Source: an uncultured Candidatus Saccharibacteria bacterium (lineage in GTDB: Bacteria; Patescibacteriota; Minisyncoccia; Phycocordibacterales; CSBR16-119). Taken from it: DNA of 64,000 nucleotides. Shown here piece by piece: positions 3,144-42,538 of the stretch (positions are counted from its first letter, which is position 1; each line of letters begins with the position of its first letter). Location of the stretch: positions 18,116 to 82,115 of the forward strand of contig CAZBAG010000003.1 of the NCBI GenBank assembly GCA_964490365.1, given 5' to 3'. The position numbers and the translations under genes are program-made. A model generated the notes under the pieces. That model searched no databases. It had not been told where the DNA came from and saw only the letters and a list, made by a program, of their open reading frames with translations.

Positions 3144-3644
3144 ATGCAACTTCAACCCACAAAAAAGGCTTTGAAAGCCCTTAGTCTTTTGACCTCTGCG
3201 CTGGCAGAAGATGCTCTGACCGATAAACAAAGGGCTCACATTGCTGAAGTTTTAGAAGCTCTAGCTGAAAACCCTAAAAGTGTATCTATCAACAGATCTC
3301 AACTTGAGCTTGTTTGGCCAGATTCAGAAAGGTATCTTGGTGCGGATCACGGTGGTAGACTTGCAGTCCTAATTTCTCCTGCTTTTGACCGTCAAAAGAA
3401 GAAGTTGCAGGCCATGCTTGTGTCTTGTGGTATTCAACCAACAAGAATTACAATATTATGTTCAAGTGAGCGTAATGTCGAGGCAATGCTCGGTTCTCAT
3501 CATTGTAGGGCGGTAATTTTCATGAACAGTATCCCTAAAAGGCTTATTGACGGTCTACCCGTGGAAACATCTGCACCCCTAAAAGGTCTCAGGAGTGAGC
3601 AGGTTCGTCAGGCAGTTGACAACCTCAGGAAATTGCTAAGCTGA
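3144..3644 (+). CDS. Hypothetical protein, GC-rich relative to the flanks, immediately after the tRNA-Thr 3' repeat
   Basis: The ORF starts at ATG 3144 (the upstream part of the track ORF overlaps the tRNA repeat). It ends with TGA at 3642-3644. GC is about 45%. No family was recognised. Confidence 0.4.
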   Translation: MQLQPTKKALKALSLLTSALAEDALTDKQRAHIAEVLEALAENPKSVSINRSQLELVWPDSERYLGADHGGRLAVLISPAFDRQKKKLQAMLVSCGIQPTRITILCSSERNVEAMLGSHHCRAVIFMNSIPKRLIDGLPVETSAPLKGLRSEQVRQAVDNLRKLLS

Positions 3645-3721
3645 GCTCTAACATTCATCAAAAAGTCCTGTCTATGACAGGGCTTTTTTCTTTCTATCTT
3701 ATTTGATATAGTGGCGTTACT

Positions 3722-4600
3722 ATGACAAATGAAGAAATAACTTCACAGATTCAATCTCTTGAAGCAGAGATGGCTCGGCCAGATTTTTGAACAAATAAAG
3801 TAGAAGCTCAATCTACAATAAAAAAAATCCAAGAACTAAAAGATAAACTAGAAGGGTTAGCAAAGTACGATAAAAAATCAGCCATTCTTAATATTTTTGC
3901 TGGGGCAGGTGGTGATGATGCCGAAGACTTTGTAAGAATTTTATACGAAATGTATTCACGTTTTTGTGATGCGCATAATTTTTCACAAAAAATTACGAGT
4001 GCTCACACAAACGAACGAAATGGCTATCGAGCGATTTCTATCGAGATTACCGGGAAAAATGTATACGGACTTTTAAAGAGAGAATCGGGCGTACACAGGC
4101 TTGTAAGAATTTCTCCTTTTAATGCAAATGCAAAGCGCCATACTTCGTTTGCTATGGTTGAATTTATTCCTCTGATTGAGCATGTTGATGATTTTATTCT
4201 TCCAAAAGATGACGTAGAGGTTTCTTTTGCTCGAAGTTCTGGTCCTGGTGGACAAAACGTGAACAAACGCGATACTGCTGTTCGTCTGGTCCATGTGCCA
4301 ACAGGTATTGCCGTGCATGTTGAGTCAGAGCGTAGTCAAGAAGCGAATCGAGAAAAAGCAGAGCACATGTTACGAGGGAAACTCATAAAAATTCTTGAAG
4401 AAAAGCAGAAAGAAACACTCGGAGAGCTTGCTATTTCAAAGGTTGTCGACAATGAATGGGGTAGTCAAATACGTTCATATGTCTTCCATCCGTATCAAAT
4501 GGTGAAAGACCATCGGACTGGTGTGGAGATTCGTGATATTGAAAAAGTGCTAAAATCTGGGGAAATCGACGAATTTATTGAGGCAGAACGCTCATTATAG
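3722..4600 (+). CDS. prfB: Peptide chain release factor 2 with an in-frame UGA at codon 23 (3788-3790), the canonical prfB recoding position
   Basis: Downstream of the UGA the same frame stays open and encodes [28 protein letters not shown], the RF2-specific SPF motif ([16 protein letters not shown]) and GGQ (GPGGQNVNK). An N-terminal [28 protein letters not shown], ends at the UGA. The +1 frame hits TAG after four codons. Confidence 0.75.
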
Positions 4601-4639
4601 CTATTCTGTGGATTTGAAAATTTTGCTATACTATATTCC

Positions 4640-5323
4640 ATGATACGTTTTGAAAATGTAACAAAAATCTACCCAAACGCGGCTGAAGCATCTGTTGAAG
4701 GACTAAATTTTGAAATAAAATCAGGGGAATTTGTCTCTATTGTGGGGCACTCTGGAGCTGGAAAAACAACTATTGTTAAACTTTTGCTCGGCGAAGAAAA
4801 GCCATCCGATGGGAATATTTTTTTTGATGAGATAGAAGTAAACACACTTCGTTCATCAAAATTAACAAACCTACGAAGAAGAATTGGTACTGTCTTCCAA
4901 GATTTTCGTCTGTTGCCGAATAAAACTGCTTATGAAAATATTGCCTTTGCGATGGAATCTGCGGGTAAAACAGACGAAGAGATCGAATCGGATGTTCCAC
5001 ACGTTCTTGATCTTGTTGATCTAGGGTCAAAAGCTTTTCATTTCCCACACCAAATGTCTGGTGGAGAAAAACAGCGTCTTTCTATTGCGCGAGCAATTAT
5101 TAACAATCCAGAAGTTGTTGTCGCTGATGAACCAACGGGTAATCTTGATCCAGTAAATACTTACGAGGTTGTTCATATTTTGAAAAAAATTAATAGTTTA
5201 GGAACCACGGTTATTCTTACTACTCACAACAAAGGTGTGGTTGATGCGATTCATAAACGAGTGATTACGCTTGAAGATGGAAAGATGGTTCGTGATGATG
5301 AGAAAGGAAAATATATCATTTAG
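4640..5323 (+). CDS. ftsE: Cell division ABC transporter ATP-binding protein FtsE
   Basis: Walker [13 protein letters not shown] signature [14 protein letters not shown] and Walker [12 protein letters not shown]. It is followed by an FtsX-like permease gene. Confidence 0.85.
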
Positions 5324-5338
5324 AGCAGTAGGATATGA

Positions 5339-5456
5339 ATCCCGATAGTGACCGCGGTCGCTAAGGGTAGTAGAATAGAAATTAAGTTTATTATTATCAG
5401 ATTTTTTAAGAATAACGATAGGAAGCATTAAGACCGCGACCTGTCACTATCGGGAT
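5339..5456. repeat. Long imperfect inverted repeat (about 21/25-bp arms, about 70-nt loop) filling the ftsE-ftsX intergenic region and overlapping the ftsX start codon
   Basis: The left arm is ATCCCGATAGTGAC-CGCGGTC (5339-5359). The right arm GACCGCGACCTGTCACTATCGGGAT (5432-5456) is its reverse complement with a 4-nt bulge. The right arm contains the ftsX ATG at 5455. Confidence 0.6.
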
Positions 5457-6378
5457 GAAAGTATTAGATATAAAAAGAGTTGTACGAGGAGGGTTTCTAA
5501 ATTTCGTTCGAAACGGTTTTGTGTCTTTGTCTTCTGTGCTTGTGATGACTATTACGCTTTCTGTTATTACGCTCATTATTCTTTCTCAGGCAGTTCTTAA
5601 TTTTTCGTTGAGTCAACTCCAAGACAAAGTAGACGTTACTGTTTTCTTTACTGTTGGTGCTTCCGAATCTGAAATTTTGGGTATTAAAGGTCAGCTTGAA
5701 CAGTTGCCTGAAGTTGCAAGTGTTGAATATATTTCTGCAGAACAAGCACTAGCAAATTTCAGAGAGCGACATTCTACCGACTATCTTACTTTACAAGCTC
5801 TTGAAGAGCTCGATGAAAATCCTTTGGGCGCAACACTAAATATTGAAGCAATAGAAGCCTCTGAATATGAACAAATTGCAAACTTCTTAGAGTCGGGCGA
5901 CGCCCTTCAAAGCAACCAACAAGTTATTATTGATAAGGTAAACTATTTCCAAAACAAACTGGTCATTGACCGTCTTATTTCTATCACCGAAGGTGCAAAG
6001 AAGCTTGGCTTGGGTATTACGCTCGTTCTTGTGTGTATTTCTGTCATTATTACTTTTAACACGCTACGACTTAATATTTATATCGTGCGAGAAGAAATTG
6101 GCGTTATGCGTGTTGTGGGTGCTGAAAACCACTATATTCGAGGTCCATTTATGGTTGAGGGAATGTTGTATGGACTTGTCTCTGCGTTTATTACTATGCT
6201 CATCTTCTATCCGATCTCACTGTGGCTTGGTGCAAACATGACAGACTTTTTGGGAATCAATCTTAACACCTACTACTTTGCGAACTTTTTCCAACTCTTT
6301 GTGATCACTGCAGTGTTCGGAATGTTGCTCGGTATGATTTCTAGTTTCCTTGCAACAAGAGCATATCTTAAAAAATAA
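5455..6378 (+). CDS. ftsX: Cell division permease FtsX
   Basis: A 307-aa protein with an N-terminal transmembrane segment, a large extracytoplasmic loop and three C-terminal transmembrane segments. It lies immediately after ftsE. Confidence 0.8.
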   Translation: MKVLDIKRVVRGGFLNFVRNGFVSLSSVLVMTITLSVITLIILSQAVLNFSLSQLQDKVDVTVFFTVGASESEILGIKGQLEQLPEVASVEYISAEQALANFRERHSTDYLTLQALEELDENPLGATLNIEAIEASEYEQIANFLESGDALQSNQQVIIDKVNYFQNKLVIDRLISITEGAKKLGLGITLVLVCISVIITFNTLRLNIYIVREEIGVMRVVGAENHYIRGPFMVEGMLYGLVSAFITMLIFYPISLWLGANMTDFLGINLNTYYFANFFQLFVITAVFGMLLGMISSFLATRAYLKK

Positions 6379-6398
6379 CAATACAAACATCACTTCAT

Positions 6399-8060
6399 AT
6401 GTCAGAAAAAAGATCAAAAACAAAATATATCTTTGTGGTCGGGGGAGTGATGTCTGGCGTTGGTAAGGGAATCACAACAGCTTCAATCGGTACTATTATA
6501 AAAAGTAAAGGCTTAAGGGTCAGCTTGATAAAAGCCGACCCTTATTTAAATGTGGATGCTGGTACGATGAACCCAACAGAACATGGAGAAGTGTTTGTGA
6601 TGGATTCTGGTCTTGAAACTGATCAAGATATGGGTAACTACGAGCGCTTTTTGAATCAAACCCTTCCAAAGGAAAACTATATGACGAACGGCATGGTCTT
6701 TAAGTATGTGATTGATAAAGAGCGCGCGCTTGGATACAAAGGTAAATGTGTTGAACCAACATATCATATTACCGAAGAAATTATTCGGCGTATTCATGAA
6801 TCGGTAAAGAAAACAGATGCAGAAGTTGTGGTTGTAGAAGTTGGTGGTACTGTGGGTGAATACCAAAATGCTATTTTTCTAGAAGCCGCACGTCAACTTA
6901 AACTAAAAAACCCAAAGGATGTTATGTTTGTGATGGTGTCATATTTGCCGACTCCTTCTTCGATTGGTGAAATGAAAACAAAGCCAACTCAAAATGCCGT
7001 TATACAAATGAACTCGTATGGAGTAAGTCCAAATATTATTATTGCCCGGGCCGAGCTTCCTATTGATAAAAAAAGAAAAGAAAAAATTGCCAACATGACA
7101 GGGCTTCTTTCTGCGGATGATGTTATTGCCGCTCCAAATGTAAAAAGTATTTACGAGGTGCCTATTAATTTTGAAAATGATGGGCTAGGAACAAGAATTC
7201 TCAGTCATTTTGGTTTGAAGTCTCGAAAAAATAATCTTAAAGAGTGGAGAAGTGTGGTGATGAAAAAGACTCAGAAAGAAGTGAATATTGCAGTTGTCGG
7301 TAAATATTTTGATACGGGGGACTTTGTACTCTCTGACGCATATATCTCAATTATTGAAGCATTGAAAATTTCAGGAATACACCTGGGGGTCAAAACAAAC
7401 CTTCACTGGCTTGATGCAAAAAAGTTCGAAACTAATGGGAAAAAAGAATTGGCAAAACTTGTAAAATATGACGGTATTTTAGTGCCAGGAGGATTTGGCG
7501 AAACAGGCATTGAAGGAAAGATAAAAGTTATTGAATATGCCAGAGTCAACAAGATTCCATATTTCGGAATTTGTTATGGTATGCAGCTTATGGTTGTTGA
7601 GTACGCAAGAAATGTCCTGGGTCTTAAGAACGCTCATACTGTAGAGATTAATGAAAAGACCGAACATCCAGTGGTGGATATTATGCCGGAGCAAAGAAAA
7701 AAGCTTGAAGTGAAAGAATATGGAGCTTCAATGCGTCTTGGTACATACGAAGCGATCTTGAAGAAAAATACGATTGCTTTTGATGCTTATAAAAAATCAA
7801 AGATTCTTGAGCGCCATCGTCATCGCTATGAAGTGAATCCTGATTATGTGGACATGCTTGAAAAAGCAGGACTTGTATTTTCTGGTAAATCTCCAAATGG
7901 TGTACTCATGGAAATAGCAGAACTTCCGACAACACAGCATCCATTTTTCTTAGGAACACAATTCCACCCAGAATTCCTTGCACGAGTATTAGAACCACAT
8001 CCATTGTTTACAGAGTTTGTAAAAGTTTGCACAAGTAAGGGTAATAAAAAATCTCTTTGA
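6399..8060 (+). CDS. pyrG: CTP synthase
   Basis: N-terminal KYIFVVGGVMSGVGKGITTASIG and a C-terminal glutamine amidotransferase domain with GICYGMQ. The protein is 553 aa. Confidence 0.95.
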   Translation: MSEKRSKTKYIFVVGGVMSGVGKGITTASIGTIIKSKGLRVSLIKADPYLNVDAGTMNPTEHGEVFVMDSGLETDQDMGNYERFLNQTLPKENYMTNGMVFKYVIDKERALGYKGKCVEPTYHITEEIIRRIHESVKKTDAEVVVVEVGGTVGEYQNAIFLEAARQLKLKNPKDVMFVMVSYLPTPSSIGEMKTKPTQNAVIQMNSYGVSPNIIIARAELPIDKKRKEKIANMTGLLSADDVIAAPNVKSIYEVPINFENDGLGTRILSHFGLKSRKNNLKEWRSVVMKKTQKEVNIAVVGKYFDTGDFVLSDAYISIIEALKISGIHLGVKTNLHWLDAKKFETNGKKELAKLVKYDGILVPGGFGETGIEGKIKVIEYARVNKIPYFGICYGMQLMVVEYARNVLGLKNAHTVEINEKTEHPVVDIMPEQRKKLEVKEYGASMRLGTYEAILKKNTIAFDAYKKSKILERHRHRYEVNPDYVDMLEKAGLVFSGKSPNGVLMEIAELPTTQHPFFLGTQFHPEFLARVLEPHPLFTEFVKVCTSKGNKKSL

Positions 8061-8061
8061 A

Positions 8062-8928
8062 CTATATAGTCGTTGAAAGTATAATTGCTGATAGAATTGC
8101 GACAAGAAGACCAATGTATTGGTGCTTGAGTAATTTCTCTTTTGTAATAAAAATTCCGAGAAGTACAGCAATAATGATGTAACTTTCAGAGATTGCAACC
8201 GCAATGCCAATAGGAGTAGAAACCATCGCGATTGCAAACGCTATCCATGCGATGTTGTCTAAGATCATCATGGGCGCAAGCACTTTCGGATATTCTATAA
8301 GATGAATCAAAGTATCTTTTATTTTTCTTTGTCTGGCAATAAAAATAAAAGATCCCACTAAAGAAACACTATTAATAACAAAGTTAATCATAAGTGGATT
8401 TGTTTCTCGTGCACCCCATCCAACAAAAAAATTTGTAATACCCATAAGTAGCGCAGATAAGAAAGCGATTTTTATTCCTTTTTCAAAAATAATTCGTTTA
8501 CTTACTGTGATATCTTTGTATGAAATCAAGAAAAGACCGATCATCAGAATTAGAATAAGTATGATTTGTAGAGTGGAAAGAGGTTCTCGAAGGATAAAAA
8601 AAGCAAAGATACTTGAAACCACTATTTCAAATGACCAAATAGGTTCAACTATAGAAAGCTTTCCTTTCTTGAGTGCCTCAAATTCAAAAAGTGCAGCCAC
8701 GAAAAGTAATATAGCCGCTGTAAATATAATATAGACAATGTTTGATGGTAGTAGTACAATCTTGCCAATATCTGACCATACAAAAGGTAAAACCATTACT
8801 GTTCCAAAAAGAGCAATGAGGAACAAGGTTTGCCAGTCACCAATTTTTCTTGTTGATTTTTGTATAAAAAAATCACCAACACCCCACGCTATCATTGCTA
8901 TAAAAGCCGAGATAATTCCTGTTGTCAT
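8062..8928 (-). CDS. EamA/DMT-family membrane transporter (about 10 transmembrane segments)
   Basis: A polytopic 288-aa membrane protein with two similar halves typical of EamA-like transporters. Confidence 0.55.
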   Translation of the reverse strand: MTTGIISAFIAMIAWGVGDFFIQKSTRKIGDWQTLFLIALFGTVMVLPFVWSDIGKIVLLPSNIVYIIFTAAILLFVAALFEFEALKKGKLSIVEPIWSFEIVVSSIFAFFILREPLSTLQIILILILMIGLFLISYKDITVSKRIIFEKGIKIAFLSALLMGITNFFVGWGARETNPLMINFVINSVSLVGSFIFIARQRKIKDTLIHLIEYPKVLAPMMILDNIAWIAFAIAMVSTPIGIAVAISESYIIIAVLLGIFITKEKLLKHQYIGLLVAILSAIILSTTI

Positions 8929-23373: not shown

Positions 23374-23802
23374 TCATTGATTTTTGAAATCAAGACCATA
23401 TCCTTCAAGTAGTTGTTCCAGTTCTTCAATGGTTTTCTTACCCATGTTGTGCATCTGTAGTAACCTGCTCCTGCTATAAAGTACAAGGTCTCCTAGTGTT
23501 TCAATTTTAAGATATTGGAGTATCTTCTGAGCTCTGACAGACAGGTTACAGTCAACAATCTTTTTGTTTAGCACGTGATCAGGCGGGAGTCTGAGTTTGT
23601 CGATTGCTCTTGAGAGTAGTACCCACTCATCTTCACGCGTGTCAGTGTTGGGTCGAAAAACAAATTCAATAGAGTCTTTAACTTTTCCTCTTTTGATTGT
23701 TACTGATTCTCTGAGTTGTTCAGGAATGCCTGGAAATACTTTGCTTGTCAGATCACTCTTGTTAAGTTCTATTGAAATGCTCCCGAGCTTTATGATTGCC
23801 AT
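23374..23802 (-). CDS. Stand-alone protein with an RNA polymerase alpha-subunit C-terminal-domain-like helix-hairpin-helix fold
   Basis: The C-terminal 60 aa (LSVRAQKILQYLKIETLGDLVLYSRSRLLQMHNMGKKTIEELEQLL) resembles the alpha-CTD helix-hairpin-helix. The N-terminal 80 aa are unassigned. Confidence 0.45.
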   Translation of the reverse strand: MAIIKLGSISIELNKSDLTSKVFPGIPEQLRESVTIKRGKVKDSIEFVFRPNTDTREDEWVLLSRAIDKLRLPPDHVLNKKIVDCNLSVRAQKILQYLKIETLGDLVLYSRSRLLQMHNMGKKTIEELEQLLEGYGLDFKNQ

Positions 23803-38159: not shown

Positions 38160-38190
38160 AGTATATCAATAATAATAAACGAAAATATAG

Positions 38191-42476: not shown

Positions 42477-42538
42477 GGTAGTAGTATATCAAAAATACAC
42501 GACTATGAGGGTTTCTCTATGATTGCTATAATCGAGGC

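Follow-up and report, generated by a model that had tools for sequence, protein, structure and literature searches.

We analyzed prfB, the gene for release factor 2 (RF2), in a 64,000-nt stretch of DNA from an uncultured Candidatus Saccharibacteria bacterium (contig CAZBAG010000003.1, positions 18,116 to 82,115 of the forward strand; this whole stretch is referred to below as the window). The gene carries an in-frame UGA at codon 23, where its homologs have an invariant Trp. Our analysis suggests that this prfB, from a Paceibacterota-like member of the Patescibacteria, is probably functional, that its invariant Trp-23 codon was changed from UGG to UGA, and that RF2 synthesis depends on read-through of UGA-A by Trp-tRNA, with RF2 itself as the competitor at this codon.

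When read and translated, positions 3722-4600 of the plus strand formed a single frame of 293 codons with one internal stop. An ATG at 3722 opens 22 sense codons, which are followed by an in-frame TGA at 3788-3790; beyond it, the zero frame runs free of stops to a TAG at 4598-4600 and encodes RF2. Both shifted frames are dead ends. After UUU, the +1 frame reads GAA CAA AUA AAG UAG (four codons, then a stop) and the -1 frame reads UUG AAC AAA UAA (three codons, then a stop), and therefore neither frameshifting nor slippage on the run of T residues before the TGA can rescue the gene. Transcriptional slippage was considered and rejected: one U more or less would lead into the frames that stop early, and the T run itself is not a conserved feature. 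These features of the locus, i.e., the 22-codon ATG-started open reading frame (ORF) ending in UGA, the remainder of RF2 with its SPF and GGQ motifs in the frame of that UGA, and shifted frames that stop within five codons, had been pointed out in an initial annotation of this DNA, and translation and profile searches bore them out. The elements of the locus are the following:

3642-3644, plus strand: stop codon TGA of the gene upstream of prfB (sequence)
3660-3688, plus strand: predicted intrinsic terminator hairpin after the upstream gene, with a 13-bp stem and a T tail (sequence and folding)
3704-3712, plus strand: extended -10-like box, TGaTATAGT, 9 nt before the prfB ATG (sequence)
3722-3787, plus strand: prfB codons 1-22, homologous counterpart of the N-terminal helix in full-length relatives (alignment)
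3788-3793, plus strand: in-frame UGA where relatives have the invariant Trp; the next codon is ACA (Thr), giving A at position +4 (alignment)
3791-4597, plus strand: rest of the RF2 coding sequence (residues 24-292), continuing in the zero frame (translation, profiles and alignment)
4112-4120, plus strand: SPF, the RF2-type stop-codon recognition tripeptide, S131 P132 F133 (invariant in the alignment)
4247-4255, plus strand: GGQ, the peptidyl-tRNA hydrolysis motif, G176 G177 Q178 (invariant in the alignment)
4598-4600, plus strand: true stop codon of prfB, TAG, which is RF1-dependent (sequence)

The predicted terminator at 3660-3688 isolates prfB as its own transcription unit. The product was identified as RF2 by several criteria. 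It matched the Pfam families PCRF (1.2e-39) and RF-1 (5.6e-34), and it scored 334 bits against the NCBIfam prfB model TIGR00020, compared with 215 and 210 bits against RF1 models. The score is below the curated prfB cut-off of 370 bits because the protein is a short form. Its best matches in the PDB were RF2 chains, and the motifs ISPFNA (residues 130-135) and GPGGQN (residues 174-179) were both invariant in the alignment of relatives. The possibility that codons 1-22 are an unrelated upstream ORF was rejected, as they are homologous to the N-terminal helix of RF2. Terminal stops of prfB were tabulated for the window and related loci and were TAG in eight cases, TAA in two and TGA in none; the internal UGA is the sole UGA offered by the prfB mRNA in these tabulated genes.

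The initial annotation placed the UGA exactly at the classic autoregulatory site of bacterial RF2 genes, that of the programmed +1 frameshift. This correspondence is one of codon number only; by homology, the codon is the invariant Trp of a PxFW motif. Residues 8-51 of the window protein correspond to residues 31-74 in the alignment with a 366-aa RF2 of solved structure, and the stop stands opposite the Trp of ADPEFWNDQ in that structure, within a P-D/E-F-W motif. DFW or NFW was present in all 20 of the aligned Patescibacteria relatives that cover codon 23. At the DNA level, a background search for TGG with the conserved peptide, in which the matches listed were mostly cyanobacterial RF2, showed TGG at codon 23 in 157 of the 161 relatives listed, TGA in three and a misaligned codon in one. 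In E. coli RF2, we take the canonical site to be UGA26 and the Trp equivalent to codon 23 of the window gene to be W47; with this numbering, the window UGA would lie ~21 codons downstream of the canonical site in homologous coordinates.

The window protein and its homologs in hundreds of Patescibacteria relatives are a short RF2 of ~292 aa. Relative to solved RF2 chains, this form begins at approximately the location of the canonical frameshift site. The first ~25 residues, to which the region of that site belongs, are missing, as are ~50 residues of domain 1. None of the signals of the frameshift was present at the window prfB. The sequence reads GAU UUU UGA ACA, with no slippery CUU before the UGA and no C after it; the upstream segment, GAGATGGCTCGGCCAGAT, contains no GGAGG-like element that could serve as a Shine-Dalgarno (SD)-like purine-rich stimulator; and RF2 carries on in the zero frame, not in the +1 frame. 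Judged from the sequence, the canonical frameshift device is absent, and the UGA is a UGG-to-UGA change at invariant Trp-23. What the gene does have is a conserved, RF2-specific UGA early in prfB.

The TGA was seen in several assemblies. Three Logan assemblies from different runs (L169-171) were identical to the window over all 879 nt of the gene. A more distant strain from another study (L001) differed at 74 of 879 nt (91.6% identity) and kept CCA GAT TTT TGA ACA. Between the window and this strain, 68 differences were synonymous and 6 were non-synonymous, giving a synonymous divergence (dS) of 0.48, a non-synonymous divergence (dN) of 0.009 and a dN/dS ratio (omega) of 0.02. Purifying selection acted on both sides of the UGA: synonymous and non-synonymous differences numbered 3 and 2 in codons 1-22, 8 and 0 in codons 24-76 (from the TGA to the next ATG), and 57 and 4 in codons 77-292, and omega downstream of the in-frame stop was 0.00-0.01. 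There is no in-frame ATG, GTG or TTG between 3791 and 3950, the next in-frame ATG being that of Met-77 at 3950. Codons 24-76, which are without an in-frame start, can thus be translated only by passing the UGA.

Comparison with 181 related loci (L001-L181) showed that the interruption recurs. Shortened gene calls led to a second lineage with TGA at codon 23, a protein cluster (P0041) with 81% aa identity. It was represented in three repositories (L083 in Logan, L084 in ENA and L172 in JGI), all with CCA GAY TTT TGA ACT GAT, including a GAC TTT TGA variant with four T residues. In identity, this lineage is closer to the TGG-bearing loci L173 (93%), L165 and L175 (90% each) than to the window (80%); the gene upstream of its prfB also ends in TGA. 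In a single-gene neighbor-joining (NJ) tree, each of the two lineages paired with a TGG clade, with bootstrap values of 71.5% and 75%, and the parsimonious reading is that two independent UGG-to-UGA events occurred at codon 23. The TGA at this codon has been retained across a dS of 0.48 (window and L001) and 0.2 (L083 and L084). No further stops or indels were found in at least eight TGA-bearing prfB sequences.

Two more clades had a TGA at codon 5. They comprise L085 and L176/177 on the one hand and L086, L174, L178 and L179-181 on the other, and their genes start with ATG AAY CAT GAA TGA ACT or ATG RAT AAT MAA TGA RCT. The RF2-like frame continued past this TGA in eight sequences, and the codon-5 TGA was retained across a dS of 0.45-1.4. 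Across the 181 loci, in-frame stops in RF2 were confined to one tight group and all were the RF2-specific TGA, save one dubious TAA. In the adjacent ftsE, ftsX and pyrG genes of the related loci, in-frame stops were absent except in the same low-quality locus. That locus (L082; GCA_030918005.1, JAUPTQ010000034.1) has a TAA at 70-72 in prfB, in place of Lys-47, and another at ~1872-1874 in ftsX on the same contig; the assembly may be of low quality, or the genome may be gathering nonsense mutations, and the prfB stop of this locus was set aside as poor assembly or decay.

Several other features of the related loci were recorded. A gene call of 276 aa was considered as a sign of a broken N-terminus and dismissed, as two intact genes (P0008/L173 and P0033/L175) were called from Met-17; protein length is therefore not diagnostic of interruption. 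When window positions 3722-8060 were compared with L001, L083-L086 and L165-L181, RF2 showed 75-80% aa identity, FtsE 92-98%, FtsX ~91% and CTP synthase (PyrG) 88-90%. Genes for LAGLIDADG homing endonucleases were located amid tRNA genes upstream of prfB in some relatives (L172, 718-1389; L174, 392-1063); no such gene was noticed at the corresponding site of the window.

The nucleotides that follow the stop changed together with it. The codon after the TGA at position 23 was ACN (Thr) in both lineages, and Thr was found at codon 24 in none of the 35 closest TGG clusters (Ser in 21, Ala in 13 and Gln in 1; Fisher p = 0.0015). A UGA-AC context was present in four of five TGA lineages, and the gain of A at position +4 co-occurred with TGA. 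Among credible real TGA stops in the window, the next nucleotide was T in four of six; UGA followed by T is a strong terminator context (PMC5289835), and a 3' A raises UGA read-through by tRNA-Trp according to a summary of the work of Engelberg-Kulka and Kopelowitz (cited in PMC10540940). A Qbeta-type coat stop annotated with ~5% read-through reads TAC TGA ACT. With A at +4, the UGA of the window prfB has a weak-terminator, leaky context.

From the arrangement of the gene, we infer read-through, Trp insertion and a working feedback. Ribosomes would start at the first AUG, probably of a leaderless mRNA, and translate 22 codons before meeting UGA-A, where RF2, the product of this very gene, and near-cognate Trp-tRNA(CCA) would compete. 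Termination would release a 22-residue peptide, and read-through would insert Trp, the residue required by the family, to yield full-length 292-aa RF2. Because RF2 is the only factor reading UGA, the result would be negative feedback: output would go up when RF2 is scarce and down when it is abundant. The logic would be that of the canonical +1 frameshift, although in the zero frame. UGA read-through in Bacillus subtilis is ~6% and rises to 19-54% in prfB mutants (PMC7918605), so both the magnitude and the RF2-sensitivity assumed here are plausible. Read-through with built-in RF2 feedback was one of three options offered in the initial annotation, next to an error in the T run and a pseudogene, and it is the option favored by the evidence, with its mechanism deduced as above.

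The UGA may have been selected as a regulator, or it may simply be tolerated since a UGA in prfB is self-correcting. The codon-5 TGA arises from GAA or CAA, and this two-step origin, together with the correlated A at +4, hints at selection.

A number of observations weigh against the proposed read-through regulation. RNA structure 3' of the prfB UGA was no better than in shuffled sequences (z = -0.65). Neither the window nor any of the 181 prfB-related loci contained a gene for tRNA-Trp or for a suppressor tRNA, and an Rfam scan of the whole window yielded five tRNAs only; as the tRNA-Trp gene was not captured, it may carry a UCA anticodon or a 4-bp anticodon stem. The independent origin of the two codon-23 lineages is suggested by a one-gene NJ tree with 71-75% bootstrap, along with identity values. 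In the codon-5 clades, (re)initiation at the invariant Met-17 is an alternative, and these clades lend weak support to read-through. RF2 appears to evolve unusually fast compared with its neighbors, which would fit relaxed RF2 demand rather than tuned regulation, as would the infrequent use of UGA stops (~10%); fast RF2 evolution and low UGA usage thus both hint at relaxed demand. Finally, recurrence could reflect an unusual tolerance of a self-correcting UGA rather than selection.

The most serious alternative to gene-specific read-through is that UGA is shifting to Trp throughout the genome (code 11 to code 4), with the shift still early or partial; the prfB UGA would be its first step or a symptom. 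In this scenario, UGA would be generally leaky because tRNA-Trp is modified or acts as a suppressor and RF2 is weakened, and prfB would have no device of its own. Such a shift has a precedent in 'Candidatus Providencia siddallii' PSAC, in which prfB underwent a UGG-to-UGA change with an A-rich 3' context (PMC10540940), and UGA is fully reassigned to Trp in the Patescibacteriota family JAKLIH01 (PMC13092985). It would also agree with the faster divergence of RF2 than of neighboring genes, with the low use of TGA stops and with the end of pyrG, where a back-up TAG lies two codons after the TGA. We examined UGA usage in a greedy set of 59 predicted ORFs within the window. The stop-codon tally recommended in the initial annotation, run on these 64 kb, gave TAA in 39 ORFs, TAG in 13 and TGA in 7, with the number of genes truly ending in TGA put at about 5-7 of the 59, and the family profile ended exactly at the TGA for pyrG (CTP synthase), for an ORF resembling the RNA polymerase alpha C-terminal domain (alpha-CTD) encoded by rpoA, and for dam. 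UGA is thus used as a genuine stop elsewhere in the window. All 172 other Trp codons in the 59 genes were TGG, compared with 20% of genes affected in PSAC, and no long window gene (up to 1058 aa) was split by an internal TGA. Consistent with the initial view that wholesale reassignment is unlikely, the absence of TGA from Trp codons and the presence of real TGA stops make the prfB UGA a one-gene exception, not a code change.

Three hallmarks of a UGA-to-Trp code (many genes with UGA-encoded Trp, loss of RF2 and absence of UGA stops) were looked for and not found. The RF2 of the window keeps both SPF and GGQ at an omega of 0.02, neighboring genes in ~20 related loci are without in-frame TGA, and the search described above revealed no suppressor tRNA in the window or related loci, although tRNA-Trp itself was not captured. 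On balance, we regard a code shift in progress as unlikely, if the least unlikely of the alternatives to read-through confined to prfB.

Two of the TGA-terminated ORFs deserve a short description. The end of pyrG (8055-8069) reads CTT TGA ACT ATA TAG, i.e., it has a CUU-UGA arrangement, and its UGA-ACU context is that of the internal prfB stops of relatives. The alpha-CTD-like ORF (window positions 23377-23802, minus strand) has 142 aa and ends in TGA; only its C-terminal half matches the alpha-CTD, and it represents a stand-alone alpha-CTD-like protein.

A second alternative dispenses with read-through altogether: ribosomes would terminate at the UGA and then re-initiate, or start internally, either at ATG 3950 or at a non-canonical codon 3' of the UGA, so that an N-terminally truncated functional RF2 is made and the 22-codon ORF acts as a leader peptide. 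Re-initiation by 70S ribosomes after short ORFs occurs in bacteria, and in the codon-5 TGA clades the invariant Met-17 lies 12 codons downstream of the stop. In the window, however, no in-frame ATG, GTG or TTG lies between the UGA and Met-77, and a start at Met-77 would lose an invariant 16-residue block as well as the strictly conserved codons 24-76. In addition, the 22 upstream codons keep the N-terminal pattern and length of RF2 in both codon-23 lineages, and the stop occupies the one codon at which read-through restores the native residue.

The way in which translation starts in this organism is also relevant. An SD-like sequence was found in only 2 of 42 window genes, and a -10-like TANNNT ending 5-12 nt before the start was present in 20 of 42 genes, compared with 11.3 +/- 2.7 (maximum 19) in shuffled sequences. 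The boxes often had the form TGnTAnAnT, suggesting that leaderless or near-leaderless mRNAs are widespread in the source organism; examples were seen at 3704-3721, 4618-4639, 38160-38190 (minus strand) and 42477-42500 (minus strand). A TGnTAnAGT box was located 7-9 nt before the first ATG of prfB in every related lineage, including the codon-5 TGA clades. The prfB mRNA is thus probably leaderless or near-leaderless and loaded at the first AUG, which argues against internal starts. We consider re-initiation improbable, more so than a code shift.

Much less credible still is a pseudogene, i.e., a prfB inactivated by a nonsense mutation and now decaying. It could be argued that the gene has an in-frame stop while its closest relatives are uninterrupted, and that RF2 evolves relatively fast in this clade. 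However, omega has been 0.02 over a dS of 0.48 since the TGA arose, the TGA-bearing sequences have not gathered added stops or indels, RF2 is still required for the UGA stops of this genome, and the same change arose twice. An alignment of prfB from sister genomes, suggested in the initial annotation, did reveal an uninterrupted gene with TGG in most relatives; this does not refute the interruption, as the TGA is conserved within lineages and recurrent.

It is similarly far-fetched that a dedicated system decodes the UGA not as Trp but as selenocysteine, Gly or Cys. UGA does encode selenocysteine in many bacteria, and Gly in Gracilibacteria and Absconditabacteria of the same superphylum, but the position is that of an invariant Trp, there is neither a hairpin nor an Rfam match 3' of the UGA, and neither another in-frame UGA in the window nor a tRNA(UCA) in the window or related loci was found. 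A selenoprotein gene was specifically rejected, given that the sequence 3' of the UGA had no SECIS-like structure (z = -0.65) or Rfam match and that homologs have Trp.

An error of sequencing or assembly, in the run of five T residues directly before the TGA or in the third base of TGG, has a negligible chance: the sequence is the same in three runs assembled independently, an 8.4%-divergent strain from another study retains the TGA, the second lineage comes from three repositories with only four T residues in one of its sequences, and a T run longer or shorter by one gives dead-end frames. The identical runs, the diverged strain and the omega of 0.02 together dispose of both error and decay, the two other options of the initial annotation.

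A broader interpretation is conceivable, if somewhat short of probable. A Paceibacterota-like group of the Candidate Phyla Radiation (CPR) may have repeatedly re-invented RF2 autoregulation by means of a zero-frame UGA within the first 23 codons that is decoded by Trp-tRNA in a UGA-ACN context. The setting would be a short RF2 without the ancestral frameshift region, expressed from largely SD-less or leaderless mRNAs. With at least two origins at Trp-23 and one or two at codon 5, the result might be described as a convergent read-through 'thermostat'.

The +1 frameshift that autoregulates RF2 is the textbook example of recoding in bacteria, and large surveys equate an in-frame stop in prfB with this frameshift. 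If our interpretation is correct, a zero-frame read-through UGA would be a second, mechanistically distinct answer to the control of RF2, found in a lineage from which the frameshift-bearing segment has disappeared. A UGG-to-UGA change in prfB would be uniquely self-buffering and could serve as an entry point to code 4. There are also practical consequences. Gene callers cut these prfB genes to fragments of 216 or 238 aa (276 aa in the codon-5 clades), and RF2 is therefore mis-annotated in these metagenome-assembled genomes. The 18-nt context (GAY UUU UGA ACN) is a natural candidate for an RF2-sensitive read-through cassette. We found no description in the literature of a zero-frame UGA in prfB of CPR/Patescibacteria; the feedback logic and the chemistry of read-through are both already known.

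The canonical prfB +1 frameshift (E. coli type, with CUU UGA C and an SD-like stimulator) likewise has an early RF2-specific UGA, and completion of RF2 likewise depends on failed RF2-mediated termination. In a survey of 8160 frameshift-type prfB genes, which considers the CTTTGA frameshift motif only, the stop was exclusively TGA and never TAG (10.1101/2024.09.24.614795), and the window gene shares this restriction to TGA. It differs from the canonical system in that RF2 continues in the zero frame, without CUU, SD-like stimulator or +4 C, and in that the site is a Trp codon ~21 codons downstream in a 292-aa family without the canonical N-terminal segment. Recoding would here be near-cognate decoding rather than a slip of the tRNA.

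The nearest precedent is PSAC, an obligate endosymbiont whose GC content is 22% (Manzano-Marin et al. 2023, PMC10540940). As in the window, a Trp codon of its prfB was mutated from UGG to UGA in an A-rich 3' context, and it retains trnW(CCA) along with prfB. Its authors propose that low-level read-through yields functional RF2, and they read the prfB change as the trigger of an ongoing change from code 11 to code 4, with in-frame UGA in 125 of 610 genes (PMC10540940). In contrast to PSAC, no other gene is affected in the 64 kb of the window, and the change recurs in several related free-standing lineages under strong purifying selection. Organisms with genetic code table 4, such as JAKLIH01 of the same phylum (reported in 2026), also have UGA where Trp is required. 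However, the change in JAKLIH01 is complete, with many UGA-Trp codons and neither RF2 nor UGA stops (PMC13092985), whereas the window has both RF2 and UGA stops, and UGA-Trp would be confined to prfB.

The closest parallel in sequence context is the coat/A1 system of phage Qbeta, in which, as in the window and its relatives, UGA is followed by ACU/ACA, and the stop is read at a few per cent. The Qbeta UGA is read by normal tRNA-Trp. The phage product of read-through is a minor, C-terminally extended protein; in the window prfB, by contrast, the main product could be made by read-through only, and this product is itself the factor competing for the UGA.

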